Below, one piece after another: positions 18,464 to 58,427 of a stretch of 64,000 nt of DNA; positions within the stretch are counted from its first letter, which is position 1; each line of letters begins with the position of its first letter. The notes under the pieces were generated by a model that was not told where the DNA came from, did no database searches, and was given only the letters and a program-made list of their open reading frames with translations. Made by a program: the position numbers and the translations under genes. This stretch comes from a virus. The stretch covers positions 62,294 to 126,293 of IMG/VR virus record IMGVR_UViG_3300032334_001128; one strand, given 5' to 3'.

Positions 18464-18613
18464 TTAATTTTTAGGTCTAGGTTCTTGTCTAGGATCTCTG
18501 ACAAAGACTACTCCTTTATGCTTTAGCTCACAGCACTCGGCTAATTTTCTAACGACAAACATTTGTCTACATACCGTACATTGATATGGATCCTGATACT
18601 TATTATTCTCCAC
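18464..18613 (-). CDS. Small zinc-finger-like protein (49 aa), not in the ORF track
   Basis: GTG start, MENNKYQDPYQCTVCRQMFVVRKLAECCELKHKG...; CxxC followed by CC-x3-H. Confidence 0.55.
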   Translation of the reverse strand: MENNKYQDPYQCTVCRQMFVVRKLAECCELKHKGVVFVRDPRQEPRPKN

Positions 18614-18683
18614 GCGGGCCTTACGGTCGTCGATCTTATAGATTAATTATCTCATCTAACCGGCTAAGTCATATGGTAAATTA

Positions 18684-18763
18684 GATGTATAAGCTTAAAG
18701 TTAAGTTTATACATCAAATTTTACCCAAAAATGATGTACAAAACTGATACATTATTATATAAC
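18684..18763. promoter_or_regulatory. res-like/operator element, copy A: 32-bp palindrome plus 29-nt promoter block
   Basis: GATGTATAAGCTTAA-AG-TTAAGTTTATACATC (14/15 arm match), then TGTACA-N17-TATAAC at 18735-18763. A second copy lies at 50186-50258. Confidence 0.65.
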
Positions 18764-18781: not shown

Positions 18782-19126
18782 ATGATGCCAAAACAGGTAA
18801 AAGTTGGTCTACAAACTTTTAAGATCGTAGAAAAGACTGCTTTAGATGATGGAATGCTAAATGAGGGTAGCTACGGATATACTTTAGAGAATCAAAATCT
18901 AATAGTGATCGATAAAAATATCCCTAAAAGCAAAAAACAAGTAACGGTGCTTCATGAAGTTCTCCACGCTTGTAGAATGTCGCTTGAAGGCCCTACAAGG
19001 CCTAAAAAGTCTGATGACTACGAAACTTGGGAGCATCATTTCATTGGAATATATGAAAATGCTGTTCTCATGGTGATGAGAGACAACCCTACTCTTTTAA
19101 AATGGCTATTAGAAGTTGGTGAATAG
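18782..19126 (+). CDS. HEXXH zinc metallopeptidase-like protein
   Basis: VTVLHEVLHA motif with a downstream E(H)HF; 114 aa. Confidence 0.7.
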   Translation: MMPKQVKVGLQTFKIVEKTALDDGMLNEGSYGYTLENQNLIVIDKNIPKSKKQVTVLHEVLHACRMSLEGPTRPKKSDDYETWEHHFIGIYENAVLMVMRDNPTLLKWLLEVGE

Positions 19127-19778
19127 TTTGACTGAGCCAGGTAAAGCCCTTTTATATGCCCGTGTATCCACCCAGCTTCAGGTAAATGACGGTGTATCTC
19201 TCGACGTCCAGGAAAGACAGCTTATAAGTGCTGCTGGACTAGCTGGATTTACGGACTATGAATTGATCAGGGAAGAGGGTCGCTCAGGTAAGTCAATTAC
19301 GGGCCGTCCGGCTCTTACAGCGGCTTTAAAGCGTCTAGACACTGGTGATGCTCAAGCACTGTTCGTGACGCGTATCGACCGCCTAGCCCGTTCTACAAAG
19401 GACTTTTTGAGCATAATAGACCGGGCAAATGCCAATAAATGGCGTCTAGTTATGCTAGATCTAAACTTGGACACAGCCAGCTATCAGGGCCGCTTTGTGG
19501 TTACAATTATGTCCGCTCTAGCTGAGATGGAACGTGGAATCATTGCAGAACGTCAAAAGGACGTCCATAAGGATCGCCGCGCTCGTGGAATCAAATGGGG
19601 CATTGATATGGGTCCTAAAAACAAGACTCCAGAAGAGATAAAAGAACGGATTAGATCTGAACGATCTAAGGGTAAGTCTTTTAGGGCTATAGCTGATGGG
19701 TTGAATAAGGATGGCATACCCACTCAAAATGGTGGAAAATGGTATGCAACCACGGTCAAGAATATTCTAGACAAATAA
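19116..19778 (+). CDS. Serine recombinase (resolvase-type catalytic domain plus short recombinase DNA-binding domain)
   Basis: YARVST catalytic Ser motif, EEGRSG, TRIDRLAR, MSALAEMER; C-terminal SFRAIADGLNKDGIPTQNGGKWYATTV. Confidence 0.92.
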   Translation: MVNSLTEPGKALLYARVSTQLQVNDGVSLDVQERQLISAAGLAGFTDYELIREEGRSGKSITGRPALTAALKRLDTGDAQALFVTRIDRLARSTKDFLSIIDRANANKWRLVMLDLNLDTASYQGRFVVTIMSALAEMERGIIAERQKDVHKDRRARGIKWGIDMGPKNKTPEEIKERIRSERSKGKSFRAIADGLNKDGIPTQNGGKWYATTVKNILDK

Positions 19779-19814
19779 AAGAAACCGGATCCTTTTGAGA
19801 TCCGGTTCTTTTTT
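19777..19814. terminator. Bidirectional rho-independent terminator
   Basis: Stem AACCGGATC/GATCCGGTT with an A-tract before and a T-tract after, between convergent genes. Confidence 0.85.
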
Positions 19815-23333: not shown

Positions 23334-24533
23334 ATGGCACTTTCAGAAAACTTAAAAAAATTAGCAGAACCTGGGCAGACTGGTTCTGATATCAAAGCAC
23401 TGGGTACCCCAGAAGAATGGCGACCACGTTTAGACGTCGATGACTCTAAAGGTGGTTTTGTTGTATCTAAGCCTCACCCAGTCGGTGAGATTCCTGACAC
23501 AGCTGACGTACTAAAGGAATTTGATCTTGATCCAAACTCTTGGACTGTAACTTCTTTACGTCGTTCTCGTTGGCAGACGTACAGCGGTGAATGGTTGGAG
23601 TCAGTTCGTGTAAACGTAACTCCATCTGGTCTAGTTGTTGCTGATCAGCTTGACGCTGAAAAACTTATTGATGAAGTTAAGAAGTGGCGTCCAGAACGTG
23701 GTATCAAAGCTGGTACCGGTAACGGAGCTTACCTAGTCTCTCCTAGCGATCAGCAGATCGGTAAGAAAGCTAATGGCCAAGGTACTCAGCAGTCAATTGA
23801 TAGAATTCTTCACTTGACTGAGGCTTCAGTAAACCGTCTACATGACCTTCGTAAAATTGGTCTTAACCTTGGAACTGTAGTTCTAGCACTCCCGGGAGAT
23901 CACGTAGAGGGTCTTACAAGCCAAAATGGTCGTTTGCAGGGTCAAGCAGCATCTGACCTAGGACTCACTGAGCAGGTGCGTGTTGCACGTCGTTTGCTTA
24001 TGGCACAGATCAAAGCTTTAGCCCCACTAGCGGAGCGCGTAATTGTTCCGGTCATCAACGGAAACCATGACGAGGTAACTCGTCAGGTAGCTGCCGATCC
24101 CGCTGATGGCTGGAACGTTGAGATTGCATCAGCAGTGCAGGACGCATGTGCTGAGAATCCAGCGTTACAACACGTCGAGTTTAGGTATCCGTCATCTGGT
24201 CACCAAACTCTAACTGTTGATATCAACGGAACTATGCTTGGACTATTCCATGGTCACCAGGTTGGTAGGGATGTAATGAAGTATCTATCTGGTCAAGCTG
24301 CAGGTCAGACTGCTCTCGGATTAGCAGACGTATGGATCTCTGGTCACTACCACAACTTTAAGACTATGGACATCGGTCAGCGTCTTTGGGTTCAATGCCC
24401 TACTACTGATCCAGGATCGGAGTGGTTCCGTGATCGTGCAGGTCTAGAATCAAAGCCAGGTCTATTGACTATGGTTATTGGTGGAGACTACGAGCCACGC
24501 GAACACATCAGCGTTCTAGCTGTTAAGCTTTAG
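23334..24533 (+). CDS. Calcineurin-like metallophosphoesterase / Mre11-like nuclease
   Basis: SDQQIG, GDHVEG, GNHD, FHGH and SGHYH motifs. Confidence 0.85.
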   Translation: MALSENLKKLAEPGQTGSDIKALGTPEEWRPRLDVDDSKGGFVVSKPHPVGEIPDTADVLKEFDLDPNSWTVTSLRRSRWQTYSGEWLESVRVNVTPSGLVVADQLDAEKLIDEVKKWRPERGIKAGTGNGAYLVSPSDQQIGKKANGQGTQQSIDRILHLTEASVNRLHDLRKIGLNLGTVVLALPGDHVEGLTSQNGRLQGQAASDLGLTEQVRVARRLLMAQIKALAPLAERVIVPVINGNHDEVTRQVAADPADGWNVEIASAVQDACAENPALQHVEFRYPSSGHQTLTVDINGTMLGLFHGHQVGRDVMKYLSGQAAGQTALGLADVWISGHYHNFKTMDIGQRLWVQCPTTDPGSEWFRDRAGLESKPGLLTMVIGGDYEPREHISVLAVKL

Positions 24534-25020
24534 GGCTTTTACTTTTAGCTTTTTTACTTGCTTTTTCTTCAGCTAGTGCGTGGAAAGCATTAACCGCGTT
24601 AGCACTGGTACGACTACGCCATTTAAAATTACATTCGGTGCACTCTACTACTCGCATGGTAGTCCAACGTCCACCGCCTGGTTTATCAACAATCATTGTT
24701 TTTAAAAACTTTGTATTTGCCGAGCAATATGGGCATATCGGGTATCTACTTCTTCTTACTTCGGCTCCATCGACGTTGACAGATAGAGTTCGTCTAATCT
24801 CGTCTTCATCTCGCCCTCCCCAAATTCCCCATATTTGTTTACTTTCCAGGGCCCATTTAAGGCAATCTTTACGCACTGGGCATGAGAAGCACATATTTTT
24901 TGCTTTATGTCTTTCTTCATATTTTGGAGAGAAGAACATCTCAGCTAAATGTTTATTTTCTAACTTCCCACATTCGGATCCATTCATCCAATCTAGATCT
25001 TCTGGATTATTTTTAGACAT
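24523..25020 (-). CDS. whiB: WhiB-family Fe-S transcription factor with a C-terminal zinc ribbon
   Basis: C...CFSCPVRKDC, GIWGG turn, plus CPYC...CTEC. Confidence 0.9.
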   Translation of the reverse strand: MSKNNPEDLDWMNGSECGKLENKHLAEMFFSPKYEERHKAKNMCFSCPVRKDCLKWALESKQIWGIWGGRDEDEIRRTLSVNVDGAEVRRSRYPICPYCSANTKFLKTMIVDKPGGGRWTTMRVVECTECNFKWRSRTSANAVNAFHALAEEKASKKAKSKSPKA

Positions 25021-37539: not shown

Positions 37540-37727
37540 CCTAGAAGTGCTTGAATTTCTTCTTCGGTAAGGCCAAGTGCTTGTAGTTTTGCTAAAGCAG
37601 ATTGTCTAGTTGCTAACGCTTGTGCCTCTTGCTCTGCTGATTGCTCTCTAGAGGCAATTTCTTCTGGTGTTTCATCTCTTTCAATTATTTCACCAGTGGT
37701 GCAGTTTAGTTCGATTATTCTATTCAT
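37536..37727 (-). CDS. Small fibre-associated/assembly protein (start reassigned to ATG 37727)
   Basis: TAATG coupling to the fibre stop codon; MNRIIELNCTTGEIIER...KLQALGLTEEEI. Confidence 0.7.
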   Translation of the reverse strand: MNRIIELNCTTGEIIERDETPEEIASREQSAEQEAQALATRQSALAKLQALGLTEEEIQALLG

Positions 37728-40700
37728 TAGTTTATTCCGTATAGATAGGCGGTTCCAGTGGCTGAAGTAAAAGTTCCAGTAGATGCTGTAAATGTTATTG
37801 AGGTGATTGCTGAAGTTGATGACCCTACTCCCCATCTAGAAGACTGACTTGAAGCACCAGTTCCACCTGATACCCATACAGTTGGTCTTGTTTGAGAGTA
37901 GTTTGGTATCTCTACTGTCATTAAATCTCCAATTGAGGGTGCTCCGTTAGTTATTGGTATGACAGTTGCTGAAGTGCTTACTGATGAAGTTGTAGAACCG
38001 GTATTATACAGCGTATAAGCAGTAGCAGTTCCACCATTAAATTGAATTTGTAAGTTTCCAGTAATGTTTCCAGCATTTGTAAAAATTATCTGAGCAACAA
38101 GTTTTTTGTATGTTCCTGGAATTGAAGTAAATGAAGGTGCTGCTCCAGAGAAAGCAAGTGGAGTACCGCTACCTGAAGCAACATTGTATGATCCAGTTAC
38201 TCCTTGTGCTCCAGTTGCTCCAGTTGTACCTTGTGTCCCTGTTCCAGTTAGACCTTGAATTCCAGATGTACCTTGAACACCTTGTAGCCCAGTTGTACCT
38301 TGAATACCTTGAGTTCCTGTAGTTCCTTGGCGACCTTGTACACCCTGAATGCCTTGAGTGCCTTGTAGCCCAATAATTGAAAACTTCCAAGAGGAGCTTG
38401 AACCAGAACCAGAAAAAGATGTAATGTCTACTGTAAAATAATTATTGTCTCCGTCATAATCCAAAGAAACTATAGTTCCTTCTAGATATCTAGCAGTATT
38501 AGTTTGATCAATAATTCTTATATTTGCTCCAGCAGCATAGGCTTCATGTGAACCAGATGAAGGGTAAAAAGCCTTTAAACCAGTTGAAAATGTATGAAGA
38601 CTTGTGCTAGTTACTGTATATCCTGCACCAGTAGGTCCTGTATAACCAATAGAGCCAGTTGTACCTTGAGCACCTCTATCGCCAGCAAGAGCAAGAGTCC
38701 AAGAACTATATGTTCCTGAACCATTTATATAGTCAATAGTTGTTATTAACTCACCAAACTCGCCGAATGCAGTGACTCTACCTTCCATATAGTTTGATTG
38801 ATATGGTGCCTCTGCTATAAATCTAACTCTTACACCTATAACATTAAAACCTTTAAAGTCATTACTATTACTTGAGAATGCCTTAGAGCCTAGTGAAATT
38901 GTATTAGATGATGAACTGTATACTCCTGTATAGCCAACTCCATTGATTCCTTGTGTCCCTGTTCCAGTTAGACCTTGAATTCCAGTTGTACCTTGAGTTC
39001 CTGTAGTTCCTTGGCGACCTTGTACACCTTGAATGCCTTGAGTGCCTTGAGCACCCGTTGTACCTTGGGAACCTGTAATGCCTTGTAATCCTGTAATACC
39101 TTGTAAACCAGTAGTACCTTGAGTACCTGTTGTCCCTTGAGCACCTGTTGTTCCCTGTGCTCCATTTGTACCTATAAAACCGCTAGTACCTTGAGCACCA
39201 GTAATTCCTTGTGTACCTAAACCTGTTGTACCTTGTAGTCCAGTTGCACCTTGAGTCCCTGTCGTACCTTGAGTTCCTGTTGCACCCTGCAATCCAGTAG
39301 TACCTTGAGTTCCGTTAGTTCCGTTAGTTCCGCTAGTGCCTTGAGTACCAGTTGTTCCTTGGGCTCCAACTGGACTTATAGAATCAAGTGAGCCGTCACC
39401 CTTTACATACTGAGCAGAAGTTCCACCTTGAGTGATGAACTTATCGGCGTTGATTAGCTGAAAATAGTCAATGGAGTTTGTTGTTCCACCAGTGCCCGAT
39501 GAGGCAACCAGGGTCGAGTTTGGCTTGTCGTACACGCAGTTGAGGATTGAGTAGAAGCCGATCAAAACGACTGGTGCGACATTGTTTAGTGCGGAAGTCA
39601 GTAGTTGACAGTTTGCTAAAGTAATCACACTTGAGGCAGCCGATGTCACGGCATTGGTCACAGCAGCAACGACTACAGAATCTACAAGGCTTAGAGTTCC
39701 AGCAGTTAGAACAGGGGCAACGGTGACAGCACTTTTTACAATCACATTGGCACTAGCGTTGTTGACGGTTATGAAGTTTGGGTTACCGCCAAAGATGGCA
39801 ACTAAACCTGCTCCAGTAATGCTTGCGGCACCGAGATCACACAACCGAAGAACGGTGTAGTCAGCGTTGCTGCTCTTTGTAAAGGTTCCAGAGACCTCAC
39901 AGTTTAGGATGTTTACGTTTCCCGTAGCGGTTGGGGCAGTTACGGTTAAGTTTGTCATCTTTATACCTGCAATAGTACAGCCAACACTTGTGCTTAGAGT
40001 TCCAGAGAGTACAATGTTTCCACCGATAAGCCCAGGACCTGTTATGGTAGTGTATTGGACAGTTATTGACGGGCTTTCAGTGTACGTTCCTGGGTGAACA
40101 ATAATGGTTTTACGCTGTGAATCTACTAAAGTCAATGCCTTAGTAATAGAAGCAACTGGAGTAAGCAAATCACCATTACCAGTAGTGTCATTTCCATCTA
40201 CTTGACTAACGTGAATTTCATAGTCATAGCCTGTGAAGGTTGTGCCTTGTACACCTTGAATACCTTGGACAGAGAGACCCTGAGTTCCTTGAATACCGAT
40301 AAGACCTTGAGTACCTTGAGTACCTTGAGTGCCTTGAAGTCCTTGAGGACCCTGAGGACCCTGAGGACCATCATTACCAATAAAACCTATTTGACCTTGG
40401 ATACCCCTTTGACCCTGAAGTCCCTGAGTACCTTGTGCACCTTGGGCACCTGTTGTGCCTTGCACACCTTGAGTTCCTTGGGTACCAGTTGCACCTGAGC
40501 CTCCATCTGGCCCTTGAGGTCCTGTTACACCTCTTAGACCTTGAAAACCAGTAGTTCCTTGTAATCCTTGGGTGCCTTGAGTACCTGTTGAGCCCTGAGC
40601 ACCTGTAGTTCCTTGACTACCAGTTGTACCTTGAGATCCAGTGTTACCAGTTGTACCTGTTAAACCTTGTGTACCAGTGGTACCCTGCGAACCATTGGTA

Positions 40701-42100
40701 CCGTTAGTACCACTCGTACCCTGAGTTCCAGTTAAGCCTTGAGTACCCGTGGTTCCCTGCGTACCAGTTAATCCTTGTAATCCAGTAAGCCCTTGAAGAC
40801 CTGTTGTACCTTGTGTACCTTGTGTACCTTGCAACTGAGCAAAGCCAAAGCCTTGAACACCCTGAATACCCTGAATACCTTGTGTACCTGTATCACCTTT
40901 ATCACCTGTTCTTACAAAGGTGACTATAATGTCGTCTGAGTTTGCAAATGTGGCTGGGTTTCCAGACACGTAAGAACCAGTTACGGTGAACCAGCCTGTG
41001 TTGCTAGTTAATGCTGTGATAGTAAATAATGCAAATACACTGGCATCAAATTTCTTTGCAATTCTAAAGTGACCCTTAATAGCAGAACTAGAGTCGTCAA
41101 TAGTGTTAAGGAAGCTGGATACATCGGTTGTTGCATCATTACTTGCATCAACATACATCTGAGTTGCAGATGAGATCGTAGCGTTGTTAAATCTTATAAA
41201 ACCAGTACCTGGGTCGGCTGCTGTAGTAGTTGTGCTGTAGGTGTAATCAAAAGTTGCTCCACCAAAGTTTCCATCTCTACCTACGGTACCTTGGATTCCT
41301 GTTATACCCTGTGTACCCTGTAGGCCTTGGATGCCCTGTGTTCCCTGAGCACCTTGTGCACCTGTAAGACCTTGAATACCTGTCGTACCCTGAACGCCTT
41401 GTGTTCCTTGTACGCCTTGTGTTCCTTGCGTACCTAAAGCACCTTGAGTCCCTGTTGTACCTTGAGTTCCTGTCGTACCTTGAACACCTTGAACACCTTG
41501 AACACCTGTAGCACCCTGAGTTCCCGTGATGCCTTGAGAACCTGTAATACCTTGTGAGCCAACCAATCCTTGAGTACCTGTTGCACCTTGTAGTCCTGTT
41601 GTACCTTGTGCACCAACCACACCTTGAGTGCCTTGACTACCAGTAACTCCTTGTACGCCCTGAGTTCCCTGAACTCCTTGTACGCCCTGTACACCTTGAG
41701 TGCCTTGTGAACCGACTGCACCTTGTAGTCCAGTTGCACCCTGAGTACCTACCGAACCTTGTGTTCCAGTTGTACCCTGTAGTCCGGTAGTTCCTTGTAT
41801 GCCTTGAGTACCTTGTGTACCCAGTGCACCCTGAGTTCCTGTAGTGCCTTGAATACCTTGAGGACCTTGTATTCCTTGAATACCTTGGGTACCTTGAGTA
41901 GCGATTCGTCCTTGGATACCTTGAGTGCCCTGAGCACCTTGTGTACCTTGTACTCCTTGAATACCTTGGAGTCCGGTAGCACCTTGTGATCCAACAGCAG
42001 AAACAATTACTTTATTTTCTTGATCTTGGATAATTACGTGATTAACGTCCGAAGAATCAATGATTACTTTATTTGGGAGATCTTCATATATTGGAGACAT
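37727..42100 (-). CDS. Collagen-like (Gly-X-Y) fibre protein with interspersed globular domains
   Basis: Several long uninterrupted GTQ/GAQ/GTT/GLQ tracts, a beta-helix-like domain, two tandem beta modules and a C-terminal jelly-roll-like domain. Confidence 0.88.
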   Translation of the reverse strand: MSPIYEDLPNKVIIDSSDVNHVIIQDQENKVIVSAVGSQGATGLQGIQGVQGTQGAQGTQGIQGRIATQGTQGIQGIQGPQGIQGTTGTQGALGTQGTQGIQGTTGLQGTTGTQGSVGTQGATGLQGAVGSQGTQGVQGVQGVQGTQGVQGVTGSQGTQGVVGAQGTTGLQGATGTQGLVGSQGITGSQGITGTQGATGVQGVQGVQGTTGTQGTTGTQGALGTQGTQGVQGTQGVQGTTGIQGLTGAQGAQGTQGIQGLQGTQGITGIQGTVGRDGNFGGATFDYTYSTTTTAADPGTGFIRFNNATISSATQMYVDASNDATTDVSSFLNTIDDSSSAIKGHFRIAKKFDASVFALFTITALTSNTGWFTVTGSYVSGNPATFANSDDIIVTFVRTGDKGDTGTQGIQGIQGVQGFGFAQLQGTQGTQGTTGLQGLTGLQGLTGTQGTTGTQGLTGTQGTSGTNGTNGSQGTTGTQGLTGTTGNTGSQGTTGSQGTTGAQGSTGTQGTQGLQGTTGFQGLRGVTGPQGPDGGSGATGTQGTQGVQGTTGAQGAQGTQGLQGQRGIQGQIGFIGNDGPQGPQGPQGLQGTQGTQGTQGLIGIQGTQGLSVQGIQGVQGTTFTGYDYEIHVSQVDGNDTTGNGDLLTPVASITKALTLVDSQRKTIIVHPGTYTESPSITVQYTTITGPGLIGGNIVLSGTLSTSVGCTIAGIKMTNLTVTAPTATGNVNILNCEVSGTFTKSSNADYTVLRLCDLGAASITGAGLVAIFGGNPNFITVNNASANVIVKSAVTVAPVLTAGTLSLVDSVVVAAVTNAVTSAASSVITLANCQLLTSALNNVAPVVLIGFYSILNCVYDKPNSTLVASSGTGGTTNSIDYFQLINADKFITQGGTSAQYVKGDGSLDSISPVGAQGTTGTQGTSGTNGTNGTQGTTGLQGATGTQGTTGTQGATGLQGTTGLGTQGITGAQGTSGFIGTNGAQGTTGAQGTTGTQGTTGLQGITGLQGITGSQGTTGAQGTQGIQGVQGRQGTTGTQGTTGIQGLTGTGTQGINGVGYTGVYSSSSNTISLGSKAFSSNSNDFKGFNVIGVRVRFIAEAPYQSNYMEGRVTAFGEFGELITTIDYINGSGTYSSWTLALAGDRGAQGTTGSIGYTGPTGAGYTVTSTSLHTFSTGLKAFYPSSGSHEAYAAGANIRIIDQTNTARYLEGTIVSLDYDGDNNYFTVDITSFSGSGSSSSWKFSIIGLQGTQGIQGVQGRQGTTGTQGIQGTTGLQGVQGTSGIQGLTGTGTQGTTGATGAQGVTGSYNVASGSGTPLAFSGAAPSFTSIPGTYKKLVAQIIFTNAGNITGNLQIQFNGGTATAYTLYNTGSTTSSVSTSATVIPITNGAPSIGDLMTVEIPNYSQTRPTVWVSGGTGASSQSSRWGVGSSTSAITSITFTASTGTFTSATGTAYLYGIN

Positions 42101-46572: not shown

Positions 46573-46750
46573 ATATAAATGTGAAAACAATCAAGAGCAT
46601 GTTTTACAACATGTCCGTAGTATTACCGATGATGAACCGGATCTGATTTGCACTGAAGAAGGGTGCGGTGGTAAAATGATTCGTATCTTCAAAGCTCCTC
46701 CCATCAAATTTGAAGGAGGGGGCTGGAGCACTAAAGATCCATGGAGATAG
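46559..46750 (+). CDS. FmdB-like zinc-ribbon protein
   Basis: MATYEYKC...C...C...MIRIF...IKFEGGGW. Confidence 0.8.
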   Translation: MATYEYKCENNQEHVLQHVRSITDDEPDLICTEEGCGGKMIRIFKAPPIKFEGGGWSTKDPWR

Positions 46751-46775
46751 ACATCCTATAGAAAGACAAAAGAAT

Positions 46776-47090
46776 ATGGAACTCAAAGAGTTTATTGATC
46801 CAACAAACTATGTAGATCAAGGAACACCACCCTGTGCTGAAACTGATCCAGAGGCATTCTTTCCTCAAGATATTGAAGGGTATAGAGCAGCTCAATATTA
46901 CAACGAAGCTGGGGCAAAATCGGTCTGTAGAGAGTGTCCATATATGACTAGGTGTCTAACTTATGCTGTACAAAATGATGAAATTGGCATCTGGGGCGGT
47001 ACCACTGAGGGTCAGCGTAAAGCTATCCGCCGGGCTATGAAATTGAATGGCCATTCTATCCAGCAAATCAACCTGTATATTAAGCGGTAA
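46776..47090 (+). CDS. whiB: Second WhiB-family transcription factor (start reassigned to ATG 46776)
   Basis: PPCAETDPEAFFP, AKSVCRECP..TRC, GIWGGTT..QR. Confidence 0.92.
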   Translation: MELKEFIDPTNYVDQGTPPCAETDPEAFFPQDIEGYRAAQYYNEAGAKSVCRECPYMTRCLTYAVQNDEIGIWGGTTEGQRKAIRRAMKLNGHSIQQINLYIKR

Positions 47091-48273: not shown

Positions 48274-48616
48274 GGGGATGACTGGTTTCGACAGTTATTC
48301 TGAAATTGGTGAAGCAAGCAGAGATGACAGTATCTCTTGAATCTGTCAAAACAATAAATGCTAACACATCTGCATACGCTCTAGCCGCGTGATTTAATCG
48401 CAACGCTTAGGCCCCTGACAAAGCACTAGTTCTAGGTGGGCAGTCAGGTTTTAAATAAGTAGGACAAAACAAAAGTCTCTCCCACAAGACTTTAAAGAGT
48501 GGTAACGACTTGATGGTCTGGTAGGTCATACATCTAAGCCGTAACATAAACTACCTAAGCTTGTAGAAGAACAATGGATCCGTAACTGGACCGGGGTTCG
48601 ATTCCCCGCATCTCCA
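48274..48616 (+). ncRNA. ssrA: tmRNA (SsrA) with tag peptide (A)ANTSAYALAA
   Basis: 5' GGGGATG pairs with 3' CATCTCC-A giving G3.U70; GGTTTCGAC 5' motif; T-arm CGGGGTTCGATTCCCCG; pk1 AGAGAT/ATCTCT with GACAG/CTGTC; resume context ATAAAT-GCT at 48360; TGA at 48390. CCA is not encoded. Confidence 0.95.
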
Positions 48617-48674
48617 CGCTTGTAGACAAAGGAGCGTAAAGCGGTCTACCCGTCCTAGGCAACGGAATCTCCAA

Positions 48675-49514: not shown

Positions 49515-49646
49515 ATGAAAAATAACGAAATTGAAGCATTAATAAAAAAGATTAAATATGACCGTCAGATGCAGAAAAAGTGTCTGTATGAGCAAGCTAA
49601 GCGAGCTCGCAAACAAGAAAAGATTGCCAATGATCCTAAACAATAA
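49515..49646 (+). CDS. Small basic hypothetical protein (43 aa), probably leaderless
   Basis: TAGAAT (49502-07)-N7-ATG; MKNNEIEALIKKIKYDRQMQKK... Confidence 0.5.
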   Translation: MKNNEIEALIKKIKYDRQMQKKCLYEQAKRARKQEKIANDPKQ

Positions 49647-50178
49647 CTACATCGGATTATCTGGATGGGCTAAATCCGGTAAAGACACTATTGCTAATTA
49701 CCTGATAGAGAATCACGGTTATAGAAGAGTATCCTTTGCTGATCCTATGAGAGAGGCTCTTCTTAGGTTAGATCCTAAGATTCCTTTTTATGGGTTAGAC
49801 ATCGCCCTTTCTACAGCAGTTAGGCTAATTGGTTGGGAAGACCTAAAGCGAAATAATCCAGATGTACGTGAGCTACTACAACGTTTTGGTACAGAGGTTG
49901 GTCGCGAGATGTTTGGTGAAAACTTCTGGGTAGATCTAGCTATCTCTAAGATCCAGCCTGGAGAGAAGGTTGTGTTTGCTGATGTTAGATATAAGAACGA
50001 AGCTGAAGCAATTCGATCTCTTGGTGGCGTAGTAGTACGTGTCAATAGAGATGGAGTTCTGGCAGCTAATGACCATGCTTCAGAGCATGATTTGAATGAG
50101 TATAACTTTGATCTAGTCCTAGATAATAACGGAAATCTAGAAGATCTCTGGAACTTGATTGGTTCCTACACAAGCTAG
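49630..50178 (+). CDS. Deoxynucleoside monophosphate kinase (start reassigned to ATG 49630)
   Basis: IGLSGWAKSGKDT P-loop, SFADPMRE, RELLQRFGTEVGR, DVRYKNE, HASE. Confidence 0.9.
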   Translation: MILNNNYIGLSGWAKSGKDTIANYLIENHGYRRVSFADPMREALLRLDPKIPFYGLDIALSTAVRLIGWEDLKRNNPDVRELLQRFGTEVGREMFGENFWVDLAISKIQPGEKVVFADVRYKNEAEAIRSLGGVVVRVNRDGVLAANDHASEHDLNEYNFDLVLDNNGNLEDLWNLIGSYTS

Positions 50179-50185
50179 TTTTTGC

Positions 50186-50258
50186 GTATAAACTTAGGAT
50201 TAAGGTTATACACCCCTAAAAATATAGTCTGTACAAAAGTGATACATTATTATATAAC
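50186..50258. promoter_or_regulatory. res-like/operator element, copy B
   Basis: GTATAAACTTAG-GA-TTAAGGTTATAC, then TGTACAAAAGTGATACATTATTATATAAC (28/29 identical to copy A). Confidence 0.65.
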
Positions 50259-50283: not shown

Positions 50284-50964
50284 ATGAAAGTTGGATTAGT
50301 TATCCCCTGGCGACCTCAGCCAACAAGAGTCTATGCTTTTGAAGCAACTATGAATAGATACTCTGATCAGCTCCCTGGCGTAACTGCCTACTATGGAGAT
50401 ACTGATGATGAGATCTTCAATCCTTCCGGGGCTAGAAACAAAGGATGTCTAGAAGCTATAGCAGATGGTTGTGACGTTCTTGTTGTGTCAGATGCTGATC
50501 TATTTGTAGAGCCTTACCCTTTACATAAGTCAATTGAGAAAGCTGCGTCTGAAAACGTAATTAGTATCCCCTATATAGATTTACTATTCCTAAGCAAGAT
50601 GGAATCAGATGAGATTATAGCTGGAAGAGAAGATGTACACTCTCTGGCAAAGAAGCCAGGGATCACTATATTTCGTGGTCAGGTAGGCGGAATCTTTGTT
50701 CTAAGTGAGTCGACGTTCAGGATCCTAAACGGATGGGACGAGCGATTCCAAGGATGGGGATTTGAGGACTTGGCTATCCGAGAGGCTCATAAGGCTATTT
50801 TTAATAGGGATTTGCATAGGACTTATGGAATAGCCGTATCTTTAAATCATGAGGATAGGGATAAAAGCTTGCTAGAAGATAATGAATCTAGGTTCAAGGA
50901 GTATCAGAGTCTAGGGCTATCCAGAGAAGAAATGATTGAGCACGTAAAGGGAAACCGTAAATAG
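50284..50964 (+). CDS. GT-A (family 2-like) glycosyltransferase
   Basis: VGLVIPWR, SGARNKG, VSDAD (DxD), NGWDERFQGWGFED. Confidence 0.88.
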   Translation: MKVGLVIPWRPQPTRVYAFEATMNRYSDQLPGVTAYYGDTDDEIFNPSGARNKGCLEAIADGCDVLVVSDADLFVEPYPLHKSIEKAASENVISIPYIDLLFLSKMESDEIIAGREDVHSLAKKPGITIFRGQVGGIFVLSESTFRILNGWDERFQGWGFEDLAIREAHKAIFNRDLHRTYGIAVSLNHEDRDKSLLEDNESRFKEYQSLGLSREEMIEHVKGNRK

Positions 50965-51662
50965 TGGAAAATATCTGGCTTCAACCGATGGTTGACAACT
51001 ATAAGAAGTTCTTTGGCGATGTCGCCGACGTCGTTATTGATATCGGCACTAGAGACGGAGATGATGCTGAGTTCCTTCGTGAGAAGTTGTCCGCGGGAAG
51101 GGTGATCGCCATAGACGCCAACCCTTTGGCAGTTGAGAAAACTAGGGCTGCTTATCCAGACTTTGAGGTAATAGAGAGTGCTATCTCGGATACTGCTGGT
51201 GAAAGTAGCTTCTATCAGGTTAATAGTGGAGATGCAGGTATGGATGGTTGCTCGTCTATCTATGCACAGAGGATCGTACAAGCAGAGGTATTTGAGGGTA
51301 AATACAAAGTCATCGACGTCCAGGTTAGAAGAATGGAAAGAATTCTGAAAGATATGGATCTGTGGGACAAAGTAGTCGACGTCGTTAAGGTTGATATTGA
51401 AGGGTTCACCTACGAGTGCATCGTGGGATTTGGAACGCAGGTGGGGAACGTAAAGATGTTCCACCTAGAAACTGAGATAAATGCTACGCATCCTTGGCAT
51501 AAAGGGAATGTGGCTGTAGCTAAGCTGATGCGTCAGCTGGGCTTTGCTCTGGTAGATCTGTCGTATGAGTGGGGTCCTGGGGTTCAGGATCAGGTTTGGA
51601 TTAACCGGAAATTGGCTAACGGAGACGTTCTTAAGGATTTTCAAGAACTTAGAGAAAAGTAG
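50964..51662 (+). CDS. FkbM-family SAM methyltransferase, paralog 2
   Basis: VIDIGTRDG, IAIDANP, VVKVDIEG, HLETE. Confidence 0.85.
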   Translation: MENIWLQPMVDNYKKFFGDVADVVIDIGTRDGDDAEFLREKLSAGRVIAIDANPLAVEKTRAAYPDFEVIESAISDTAGESSFYQVNSGDAGMDGCSSIYAQRIVQAEVFEGKYKVIDVQVRRMERILKDMDLWDKVVDVVKVDIEGFTYECIVGFGTQVGNVKMFHLETEINATHPWHKGNVAVAKLMRQLGFALVDLSYEWGPGVQDQVWINRKLANGDVLKDFQELREK

Positions 51663-57982: not shown

Positions 57983-58036
57983 AGGTCTATTTTATCCCGA
58001 AAACTGGAAGGGGATTATGGGGAAATGTGGTAGGTT

Positions 58037-58380
58037 AAAACTATGAAAAACAACCTAAAACCATGAAATGCAACTATATCTGAAAACGAGGCATAGTGTA
58101 TAGTAGAAATCGGTACCTTACCATAAAGTGTTGGAGAAAATGCAAAAAGTCTTGAACAGCTGCTTAGATCTGATACATTGAGATACTAGCAAAAAAATTA
58201 AAAATAAAATGAAAAAAGTTGTTATGTCATGAAACCATGAAACCATGTAACCATGTAACTCAACTATATTTTCTATACGCGTATAGAGTTCAATTCTACG
58301 CCAAGTAAAACTATAGTTGACTTACATGGTTACATGGATTTAAGTCTGTTTTAGGTTGTTTTTCATGACATTCATGGTTT
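58037..58380. repeat. Iteron and inverted-repeat region, candidate replication origin
   Basis: Tandem (T/A)AACCATG units at 58231-58257; 26-bp inverted arms (1 mismatch) around a perfect 16-bp palindrome TCTATACGCGTATAGA; outer perfect 18-bp IR (58043-60 / 58349-66); A-rich tract; no ORF. Confidence 0.7.
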
Positions 58381-58427
58381 GGTTTGTGCTAGACTGAAAA
58401 AGCAAATTTTTGTACAAGGAGAAAAAT

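Follow-up and report, generated by a model that had tools for sequence, protein, structure and literature searches.

A palindrome-and-promoter control element present twice in a lake-water phage genome and linked among its relatives to a small serine recombinase

The genome of a lake-water phage carries two copies of a 73-base control element that consists of a 26-base palindrome and a promoter. Our preferred reading, to which we give a probability of roughly 0.55 from sequence comparison, is that the palindrome would be the binding site of the phage's own serine recombinase, joined to a promoter and, in this genome, duplicated as a regulatory module. Both copies (A and B) lie in the window we analyzed, a stretch of 64,000 nt that forms the second half of a 126,293-bp virus record (43.6% G+C). 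The features of the two copies and of the genes around them are as follows.

18464..18643, minus strand: small Cys-rich ORF (CxxC...CC), divergent from copy A
18687..18712, no strand: copy A palindrome, 12-2-12
18699-18700: copy A central dinucleotide, AG
18735..18763, plus strand: copy A promoter box, with TG at 18745-46 and TACATT at 18748-53
18782..19126, plus strand: 114-aa HExxH (ImmA/IrrE-like) peptidase gene, first gene 3' of copy A
19116..19778, plus strand: 220-aa serine recombinase (catalytic domain, long helix, C-terminal three-helix DNA-binding domain)
49558..50178, plus strand: dNMP kinase gene, ending 8 nt before copy B
50186..50211, no strand: copy B palindrome, 12-2-12, arms differing at positions 7 and 12
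50198-50199: copy B central dinucleotide, GA
50212..50229, plus strand: copy B spacer, 18 nt, with an A-run
50230..50258, plus strand: copy B promoter box
50284..50964, plus strand: GT-A-type glycosyltransferase, first gene 3' of copy B
50964..51662, plus strand: FkbM-type methyltransferase, second gene 3' of copy B

As a whole, copy A spans 18687-18763 and copy B spans 50186-50258; they are 31.5 kb apart in direct orientation. The two palindromes match at 21 of 26 positions (22 of 27 when the next base is counted) and the two promoter boxes at 28 of 29, and the gap between palindrome and box is 22 nt in copy A. A first-pass annotation of this DNA had described the two-part architecture, and we reproduced all of it, including the coordinates, the gaps of 18 and 22 nt and the 22/27 and 28/29 matches. 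Its statements that the AG and GA centers match in neither orientation, and that the genes 3' of copy B encode a glycosyltransferase (50284-50964) and a methyltransferase (50964-51662), were likewise confirmed. With up to three mismatches allowed, the box has two matches in the window (A and B), as compared to none in 100 shuffled sequences. The motif scan of the full genome that had been proposed found the box and paired half-sites at A and B only: the whole 126,293-bp genome contains no third copy of the box at up to seven mismatches, and no further paired half-sites outside A and B. We also considered a general promoter class and rejected it, as TGTACA followed by a -10-like hexamer has no intergenic occurrence in the genome beyond A and B.

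Both copies recur in related phages. In L096 (from the same contig as L099), the kinase gene, palindrome, box, glycosyltransferase gene and methyltransferase gene are found in the same order as at copy B, and a 75-nt stretch that starts just ahead of the palindrome and runs through the box is 100% identical to this genome, as compared to about 78% in the flanks. A 16-nt indel begins a few bases past the box, and the flanking proteins are 72–79% identical (72% for the glycosyltransferase). A third lineage with the copy B layout, represented by L104, L110 and L119, matches the palindrome at 25/26 and the box at 29/29 positions, while its spacer is partly changed and its flanking proteins are 69–71% identical. 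Copy A is found together with the divergent Cys-rich ORF in L002-L005 and L117, and its palindrome in L002 matches at 25/26 positions. An extended -10 of TGAGATAAT type (minus strand, 18646-18654) serves the side of the Cys-rich ORF; it is divergent and lies about 60 nt from the center of the copy A palindrome, so copy A is placed within a divergent promoter region, and both the ORF and its extended -10 are kept in L002. An element without conservation in relatives, an outcome for which the first-pass annotation had allowed, is excluded, with copy B present in two other lineages and copy A in one. The comparison supports an element that would be functional and conserved, i.e., more than a neutral duplication. 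Among named relatives, the nearest is the lake phage DSL-LC01 (an uncultured Actinomycetia phage), with a recombinase of 70.7% identity; the paper on DSL-LC01 makes no mention of the recombinase (PMC10611076). IMG/VR and metagenomes hold a very large number of related contigs.

Scanning all fetched loci, we identified at least 24 distinct cassettes in which a palindrome is followed by TGTAC[AG] and then by a conserved TACNTT hexamer, and the 12-2-12 geometry is seen in all of them. Among 40 arms, positions 2, 5 and 9–11 of the half-site are almost constant, position 7 varies with no compensation in the other arm, and the four central bases are free. The orientation of the central dinucleotide relative to the promoter is not fixed, and none of the cassettes scanned has a palindromic dinucleotide at the center. 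Within the cassette, only the TGTAC[AG] hexamer recalls the outer half-site. A symmetric second operator in the box (TGTA-N9-TACA) was considered and rejected: its last A varies freely among lineages, and TACNTT is kept.

The box allows two promoter readings. At copy B, TGTACA (50230-35), 17 nt and TATAAC (50253-58) would make a -35/-10 pair, as had been annotated; in the second reading, TG (50240-41) and TACATT (50243-48) would make an extended -10. The TGTACA-17-TATAAC arrangement fits the main group, and TATAAC is missing or mis-spaced in several lineages; TACNTT is kept in all lineages, mostly with TG-N before it. Since TACNTT is universal and TATAAC is not, an extended -10 promoter appears at least as likely as the -35/-10 pair. 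The annotated promoter thus stands for the main group, as one of two readings, with TG-N-TACNTT being the universally kept part. The extended -10 reading leaves space for ribosome-binding sites close after the box in L018 and L047. The place of TGTACA is taken in DSL-LC01 and L069 by the palindrome's right end. We note a cassette at positions 976-1040 of L115 (G004), located after a tRNA-like 3' end and a terminator, in which the TGTACA hexamer is missing and the palindrome and the GATACATT...TATAAC segment are retained.

From palindrome to TACNTT, 7 cassettes measure 22–24 nt, 15 measure 31–35 nt and 2 measure 45 nt, so that the distance classes are about one helical turn apart; the 18-nt spacer of copy B is the shortest of its class. 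When compared to uniform spacing, the distances are periodic with R of about 0.8 at a period of 10.5–11 (0 of 20,000 random sets were as periodic), a figure that covers related cassettes with few independent length changes (indel events) behind it. The more robust point is that spacers that are unalignable hold their length within one or two bases. Spacers held in length in this way fit a palindrome-bound protein that would work with whatever occupies the promoter, and a recombinase synapse that involves an accessory element would also be compatible with constrained spacing. The protein had been proposed to be a repressor; the palindrome lies well upstream of the core promoter in this genome, so activation is as possible as repression, and we dropped that term. 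In L127 (about 2024-2049) and L131 (about 2036-2061), palindrome and promoter box are separated by an inserted GC-rich terminator hairpin, and the spacing is longer by about one more helical turn.

The recombinase encoded 3' of copy A matches the Pfam Resolvase family (1e-30) and was aligned to the catalytic domains of TP901-1, Gin and gamma-delta. Residues R16, S18, D88, R89 and R92 are invariant in 29 homologues (72–91% identity), and, with the catalytic residues kept throughout, catalysis is presumably in use. The structure model shows a long helix and, with confidence, a C-terminal domain of three helices (helix-turn-helix), and fold matches were found to the N-terminal part of large serine integrases and to whole resolvase-DNA complexes. 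Only the first 45 residues of the Pfam Recombinase domain are present before the protein ends, and the length of the protein is kept in all homologues (it always stops after the first helix-turn-helix of the integrase 'recombinase domain'); this constant end point points to a stable minimal form and not to a recent truncation. We found at least 1,702 homologues of the recombinase, which is strongly conserved in many 120–137-kb phages of abundant lake Actinobacteria. Over 29 lineages the recombinase is 72–91% identical, as compared to 45–62% for the peptidase and 57–72% for the kinase.

Among 57 distinct lineages (loci of about 5.7 kb), 20 have the site within 3 kb of the recombinase gene, always upstream of it, whereas a single site at a random place in 130 kb would give about 2.5 of 57; no false match arose in three whole genomes scanned in the same way. 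Loci centered on the primase gene provide more cases of a site directly upstream of the recombinase gene, and in several recombinase subfamilies the palindrome is found 69–96 nt upstream of the gene. Three relatives that have no recombinase, G019 (complete, 153.7 kb), G020 and G021, have no site. Main-type recombinases (with a recognition helix of TTVKN kind) pair with half-sites of GTATAAACTTAA kind, and subfamilies with an SSIKY-type helix (64–70% identity) have a 12-2-12 palindrome 74–96 nt upstream, with a half-site of GTACAYCCTTAA kind. The tie between the element and the serine recombinase that had been suggested for this genome is thus upheld by linkage, co-occurrence and covariation of half-site and recognition helix, all from comparison and, for co-occurrence and covariation, confounded by phylogeny; the linkage could also stem merely from the recombinase gene belonging to the operon of the promoter.

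This last point leads to the reading in which the palindrome is the operator of another regulator, phage- or host-encoded, and the recombinase gene just happens to be in the regulated operon. We consider it unlikely, while giving it appreciable weight. The cassette heads many different first genes (peptidase, recombinase, kinase, glycosyltransferase and small ORFs), it is found far from the recombinase gene in G1, G2 and G4, and its length-constrained distance to the promoter is as for an ordinary operator; two WhiB-like transcription factor genes (46710-47090, plus strand, and 24523-25020, minus strand) and many uncharacterized small phage proteins could provide the binder. However, a 12-2-12 palindrome with a variable center is typical of serine recombinase sites, subfamilies down to 64% identity keep the site immediately before the recombinase gene, with the half-site changing in step, and the site is missing from the three relatives in which the recombinase is missing. 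No helix-turn-helix regulator was found among 30 neighboring small ORFs scanned. In a search of 185,579 species, the strict palindrome matched no actinobacterial genome, which argues against a host regulon. A host attachment site or host regulon was rejected as a candidate, with the strict palindrome matching only three gut Firmicutes MAGs, which we took as chance.

Cassettes with a palindrome and promoter unit before different genes in related phages are also known from T4-type phages, as PeSL promoter/stem-loop cassettes (PMC2839356, PMC4122927). We think it improbable that the element described here is of that type, in which the palindrome would act as an RNA hairpin or terminator and the repeat would only promote module shuffling by homologous recombination. 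The palindrome-then-promoter architecture is shared, and among relatives the cassette is found before different genes with flanks differing on both sides, but the RNA hairpin of copy B is weak (-6.9 kcal/mol, z 0.19 versus shuffles) with its A/C mismatch retained in L096, and the arms are conserved in sequence and do not covary, position 7 being uncompensated. Copy A has no co-directional upstream gene to terminate, and some lineages have a separate GC-rich terminator between the palindrome and the box. PeSLs have variable stem sequences, act as terminators and are present many times per genome, at indel borders, whereas this cassette has conserved arms and only 0–2 copies per genome. We also rejected a plain terminator reading, as a consensus scan called no terminator at either copy. 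With the copy B RNA folding no better than shuffles, the palindrome is a DNA site for a protein and not a terminator.

Returning to the reading of the palindrome as the recombinase's own site, we compared its number and place among the genomes of the family, which have 0–2 sites each (the counts cover relatives other than the closest 126-kb ones, whose recombinases are 91–93% identical). Near-complete relatives with one site are G1, G2, G4, G5, G7, G8-G9, G11-G12 and G14-G18. At up to three mismatches no site was found in G3, G6, DSL-LC01, G22 and G23; G3, G6, G22 and G23 carry the recombinase despite this, and DSL-LC01, G22 and G23 have diverged versions of the palindrome upstream of the recombinase gene. 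Two sites are found, besides this genome, in G010 (13.7 kb apart) and G013 (15.5 kb apart), so the two-site state is uncommon but not unique. The centers differ within all three two-site genomes; we rejected this as a sign of selection, given a chance probability of about 0.4 (our own estimate from the center frequencies).

The sole site of G1, G2 and G4 is 13–26 kb away from the recombinase gene, and in G1 and G2 it is at the copy B position. The gene order in G1 is tail fibers, kinase, recombinase, primase, replication block, tmRNA region, cassette, peptidase, further putative glycan genes (assigned by eye) and a cytidylyltransferase-like gene. In G2, the tmRNA region is followed by the cassette, small ORFs, and glycosyltransferase, peptidase and DNA methyltransferase genes. 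In both genomes, one cassette therefore heads an operon that has the peptidase gene and the glycan genes together. In this genome, the peptidase gene and a cassette precede the recombinase gene, and the kinase gene, which in many relatives is directly 5' of the recombinase gene, precedes copy B. The simplest account would be one operon split in two, with each half keeping the control cassette. Among relatives, a single cassette would control an accessory operon whose set of dNMP kinase, recombinase, HExxH peptidase, glycosyltransferase and methyltransferase genes varies; here, copy A would control the peptidase and recombinase genes, and copy B the glycosyltransferase and methyltransferase genes. 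With the cassette kept by both halves, one protein could still set both. The co-regulation of two operons suggested by the first-pass annotation fits the relatives in which one cassette stands over peptidase and glycosyltransferase genes, and to that extent, at the level of comparison, it can be retained.

A and B might also be working or former crossover sites for the excision of the 31.5-kb replication/RNR/tmRNA block between them, which had been put forward as an alternative; we find this improbable. Direct orientation, 12-2-12 geometry and a recombinase that looks catalytically intact would suit such a switch, and joining A to B would bring the dNMP kinase gene 5' of the peptidase and recombinase genes, similar to the kinase-recombinase adjacency of many relatives. 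But the AG and GA centers match in neither orientation and should prevent A x B recombination, most large relatives have one or no detectable site (in the whole genomes G1 and G2 it is the copy B position that is shared), and excision would take away the primase, helicase-like and SSB genes that the block contains, which would be lethal. A single A x B event cannot turn the cyclic gene order of this genome (G0) into that of G1, so a simple excision footprint does not account for the layout. One 26.4-kb contig of the source sample crosses copy B with no loose end at the palindrome; since contigs drop rare forms, this weighs neither for nor against a junction. The idea of a relic switch is not supported, with the split operon explaining the A/B pair instead. 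We note that in G2 (L082-L088, 12298-19068) a block of kinase, recombinase, primase and 399-aa genes is inverted and moved as compared to this genome and G1, and the ends of this inversion do not coincide with the palindrome. A neutral, recent promoter duplication with a functionless copy B is hardly credible: the boxes are 28/29 identical within one genome, but copy B is kept in place where the flanking proteins are only about 70% identical. Readings outside those listed here share a small remainder of the probability.

The element can be compared to several known systems. In Tn3 and gamma-delta, promoters are within or beside res and resolvase binding autoregulates the neighboring genes; passenger genes of Tn3-type elements adjoin site I and are exchanged there between elements (PMC7157771). 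At the sequence level, the phage recombinase gene is similarly preceded by a site with inverted 12-bp half-sites and a central dinucleotide, as in res with TnpR. Sequence, structure model and fold match agree on the catalytic Ser/Arg set and the C-terminal helix-turn-helix of a res-type system, and the crossover-site geometry beside the recombinase gene is there at the sequence level. Unlike Tn3 res, accessory subsites II and III were not found, and the genome has no more paired half-sites. The carrier is a 126-kb phage and not a transposon, the second copy precedes an unrelated operon, and the palindrome is upstream of the promoter and not over it. Unlike TnpR, the 220-aa phage enzyme is closest to the N-terminal part of large serine integrases.

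A 26-bp 12-2-12 site with a non-palindromic center and a small phage-encoded serine recombinase are also what is found in the Hin/Gin/Cin systems with their hix/gix sites. Invertase sites form an inverted pair with identical centers and a short invertible segment between them. Here, in contrast, the centers differ (AG and GA, as do those of the other two-site genomes), 31.5 kb lies between the sites and a single site is usual among relatives; we saw no inversion with the sites as its ends, and the one in G2 is not bounded by them. The presence of one site per replicon beside the recombinase gene is like multimer-resolution systems (Sin/res, structure 2r0q), of which P1 Cre/lox is a phage example. 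As in multimer resolution, a single site in each genome would be enough for exchange between sister copies, in keeping with the one-site relatives; the likeness is one of site count and gene adjacency. Unlike Sin/res, no accessory or architectural-protein site was identified here. Nor does the system conform to a large serine integrase with attP, as the enzyme ends short of a full Recombinase domain plus zinc ribbon and no prophage forms were seen. Among the 120 best homologues, no integrated form was seen and the longest contigs stop at about 137 kb, i.e., the phage genome size; with phage-sized contigs and no strict site in actinobacterial genomes, integration by this recombinase is unlikely.

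Taken as a mechanism, the element would be a two-part control cassette in which the 26-bp 12-2-12 palindrome, the putative site of its cognate recombinase, is held at a constrained distance upstream of a dedicated promoter. With all catalytic residues kept, the recombinase probably also recombines this site between sister genomes (e.g. in multimer resolution), which one site per genome would suit, and recombination of A with B within one genome would be blocked by the different central dinucleotides. We put forward only tentatively, as rather doubtful in its full extent, a broader proposal for these widespread uncultured freshwater actinophages. A minimal, integrase-derived serine recombinase would do two jobs from one palindrome: it would resolve or join sister genomes at a single site, and it would act, always from one face of the helix, as a transcription factor dedicated to an accessory operon with glycosyltransferase and methyltransferase genes that may modify the virion; a second site would be made purely regulatory by its differing center. 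If the recombinase binds the sites, this would be a phage case of a recombination site reused as an operator for genes unrelated to recombination, and it would give a first functional handle on a recombinase that is conserved in phages of lake Actinobacteria. With its small size of 220 aa and a defined 26-bp site, the enzyme could also be of interest to users of serine recombinases as tools.

Other features were observed near the two copies and elsewhere in the window. The peptidase gene overlaps the start of the recombinase gene by 11 nt; in many lineages, an HExxH peptidase gene accompanies either the cassette or the recombinase gene, and no gene for an ImmR-like repressor was seen next to the peptidase gene. 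A two-way terminator-like hairpin (19783-19807) is located between the convergent recombinase and primase genes. The phage has a tmRNA gene (48274-48617, tag ANTSAYALAA), which was the sole match in an Rfam search, and many contigs from four runs break or differ in the region of this gene. A 1457-aa ORF on the minus strand (37727-42100) has dense 9- and 18-nt periodic repeats (collagen-like Gly-X-Y coding). A motif at 58170 was considered as a related element and rejected, since it has no palindrome and sits in an iteron-rich, origin-like region. This non-coding region (58000-58400) has repeated ACCATG-type iterons and contains a 44-nt inverted repeat (58240-58283 and 58297-58340) with arms that are 82% complementary.
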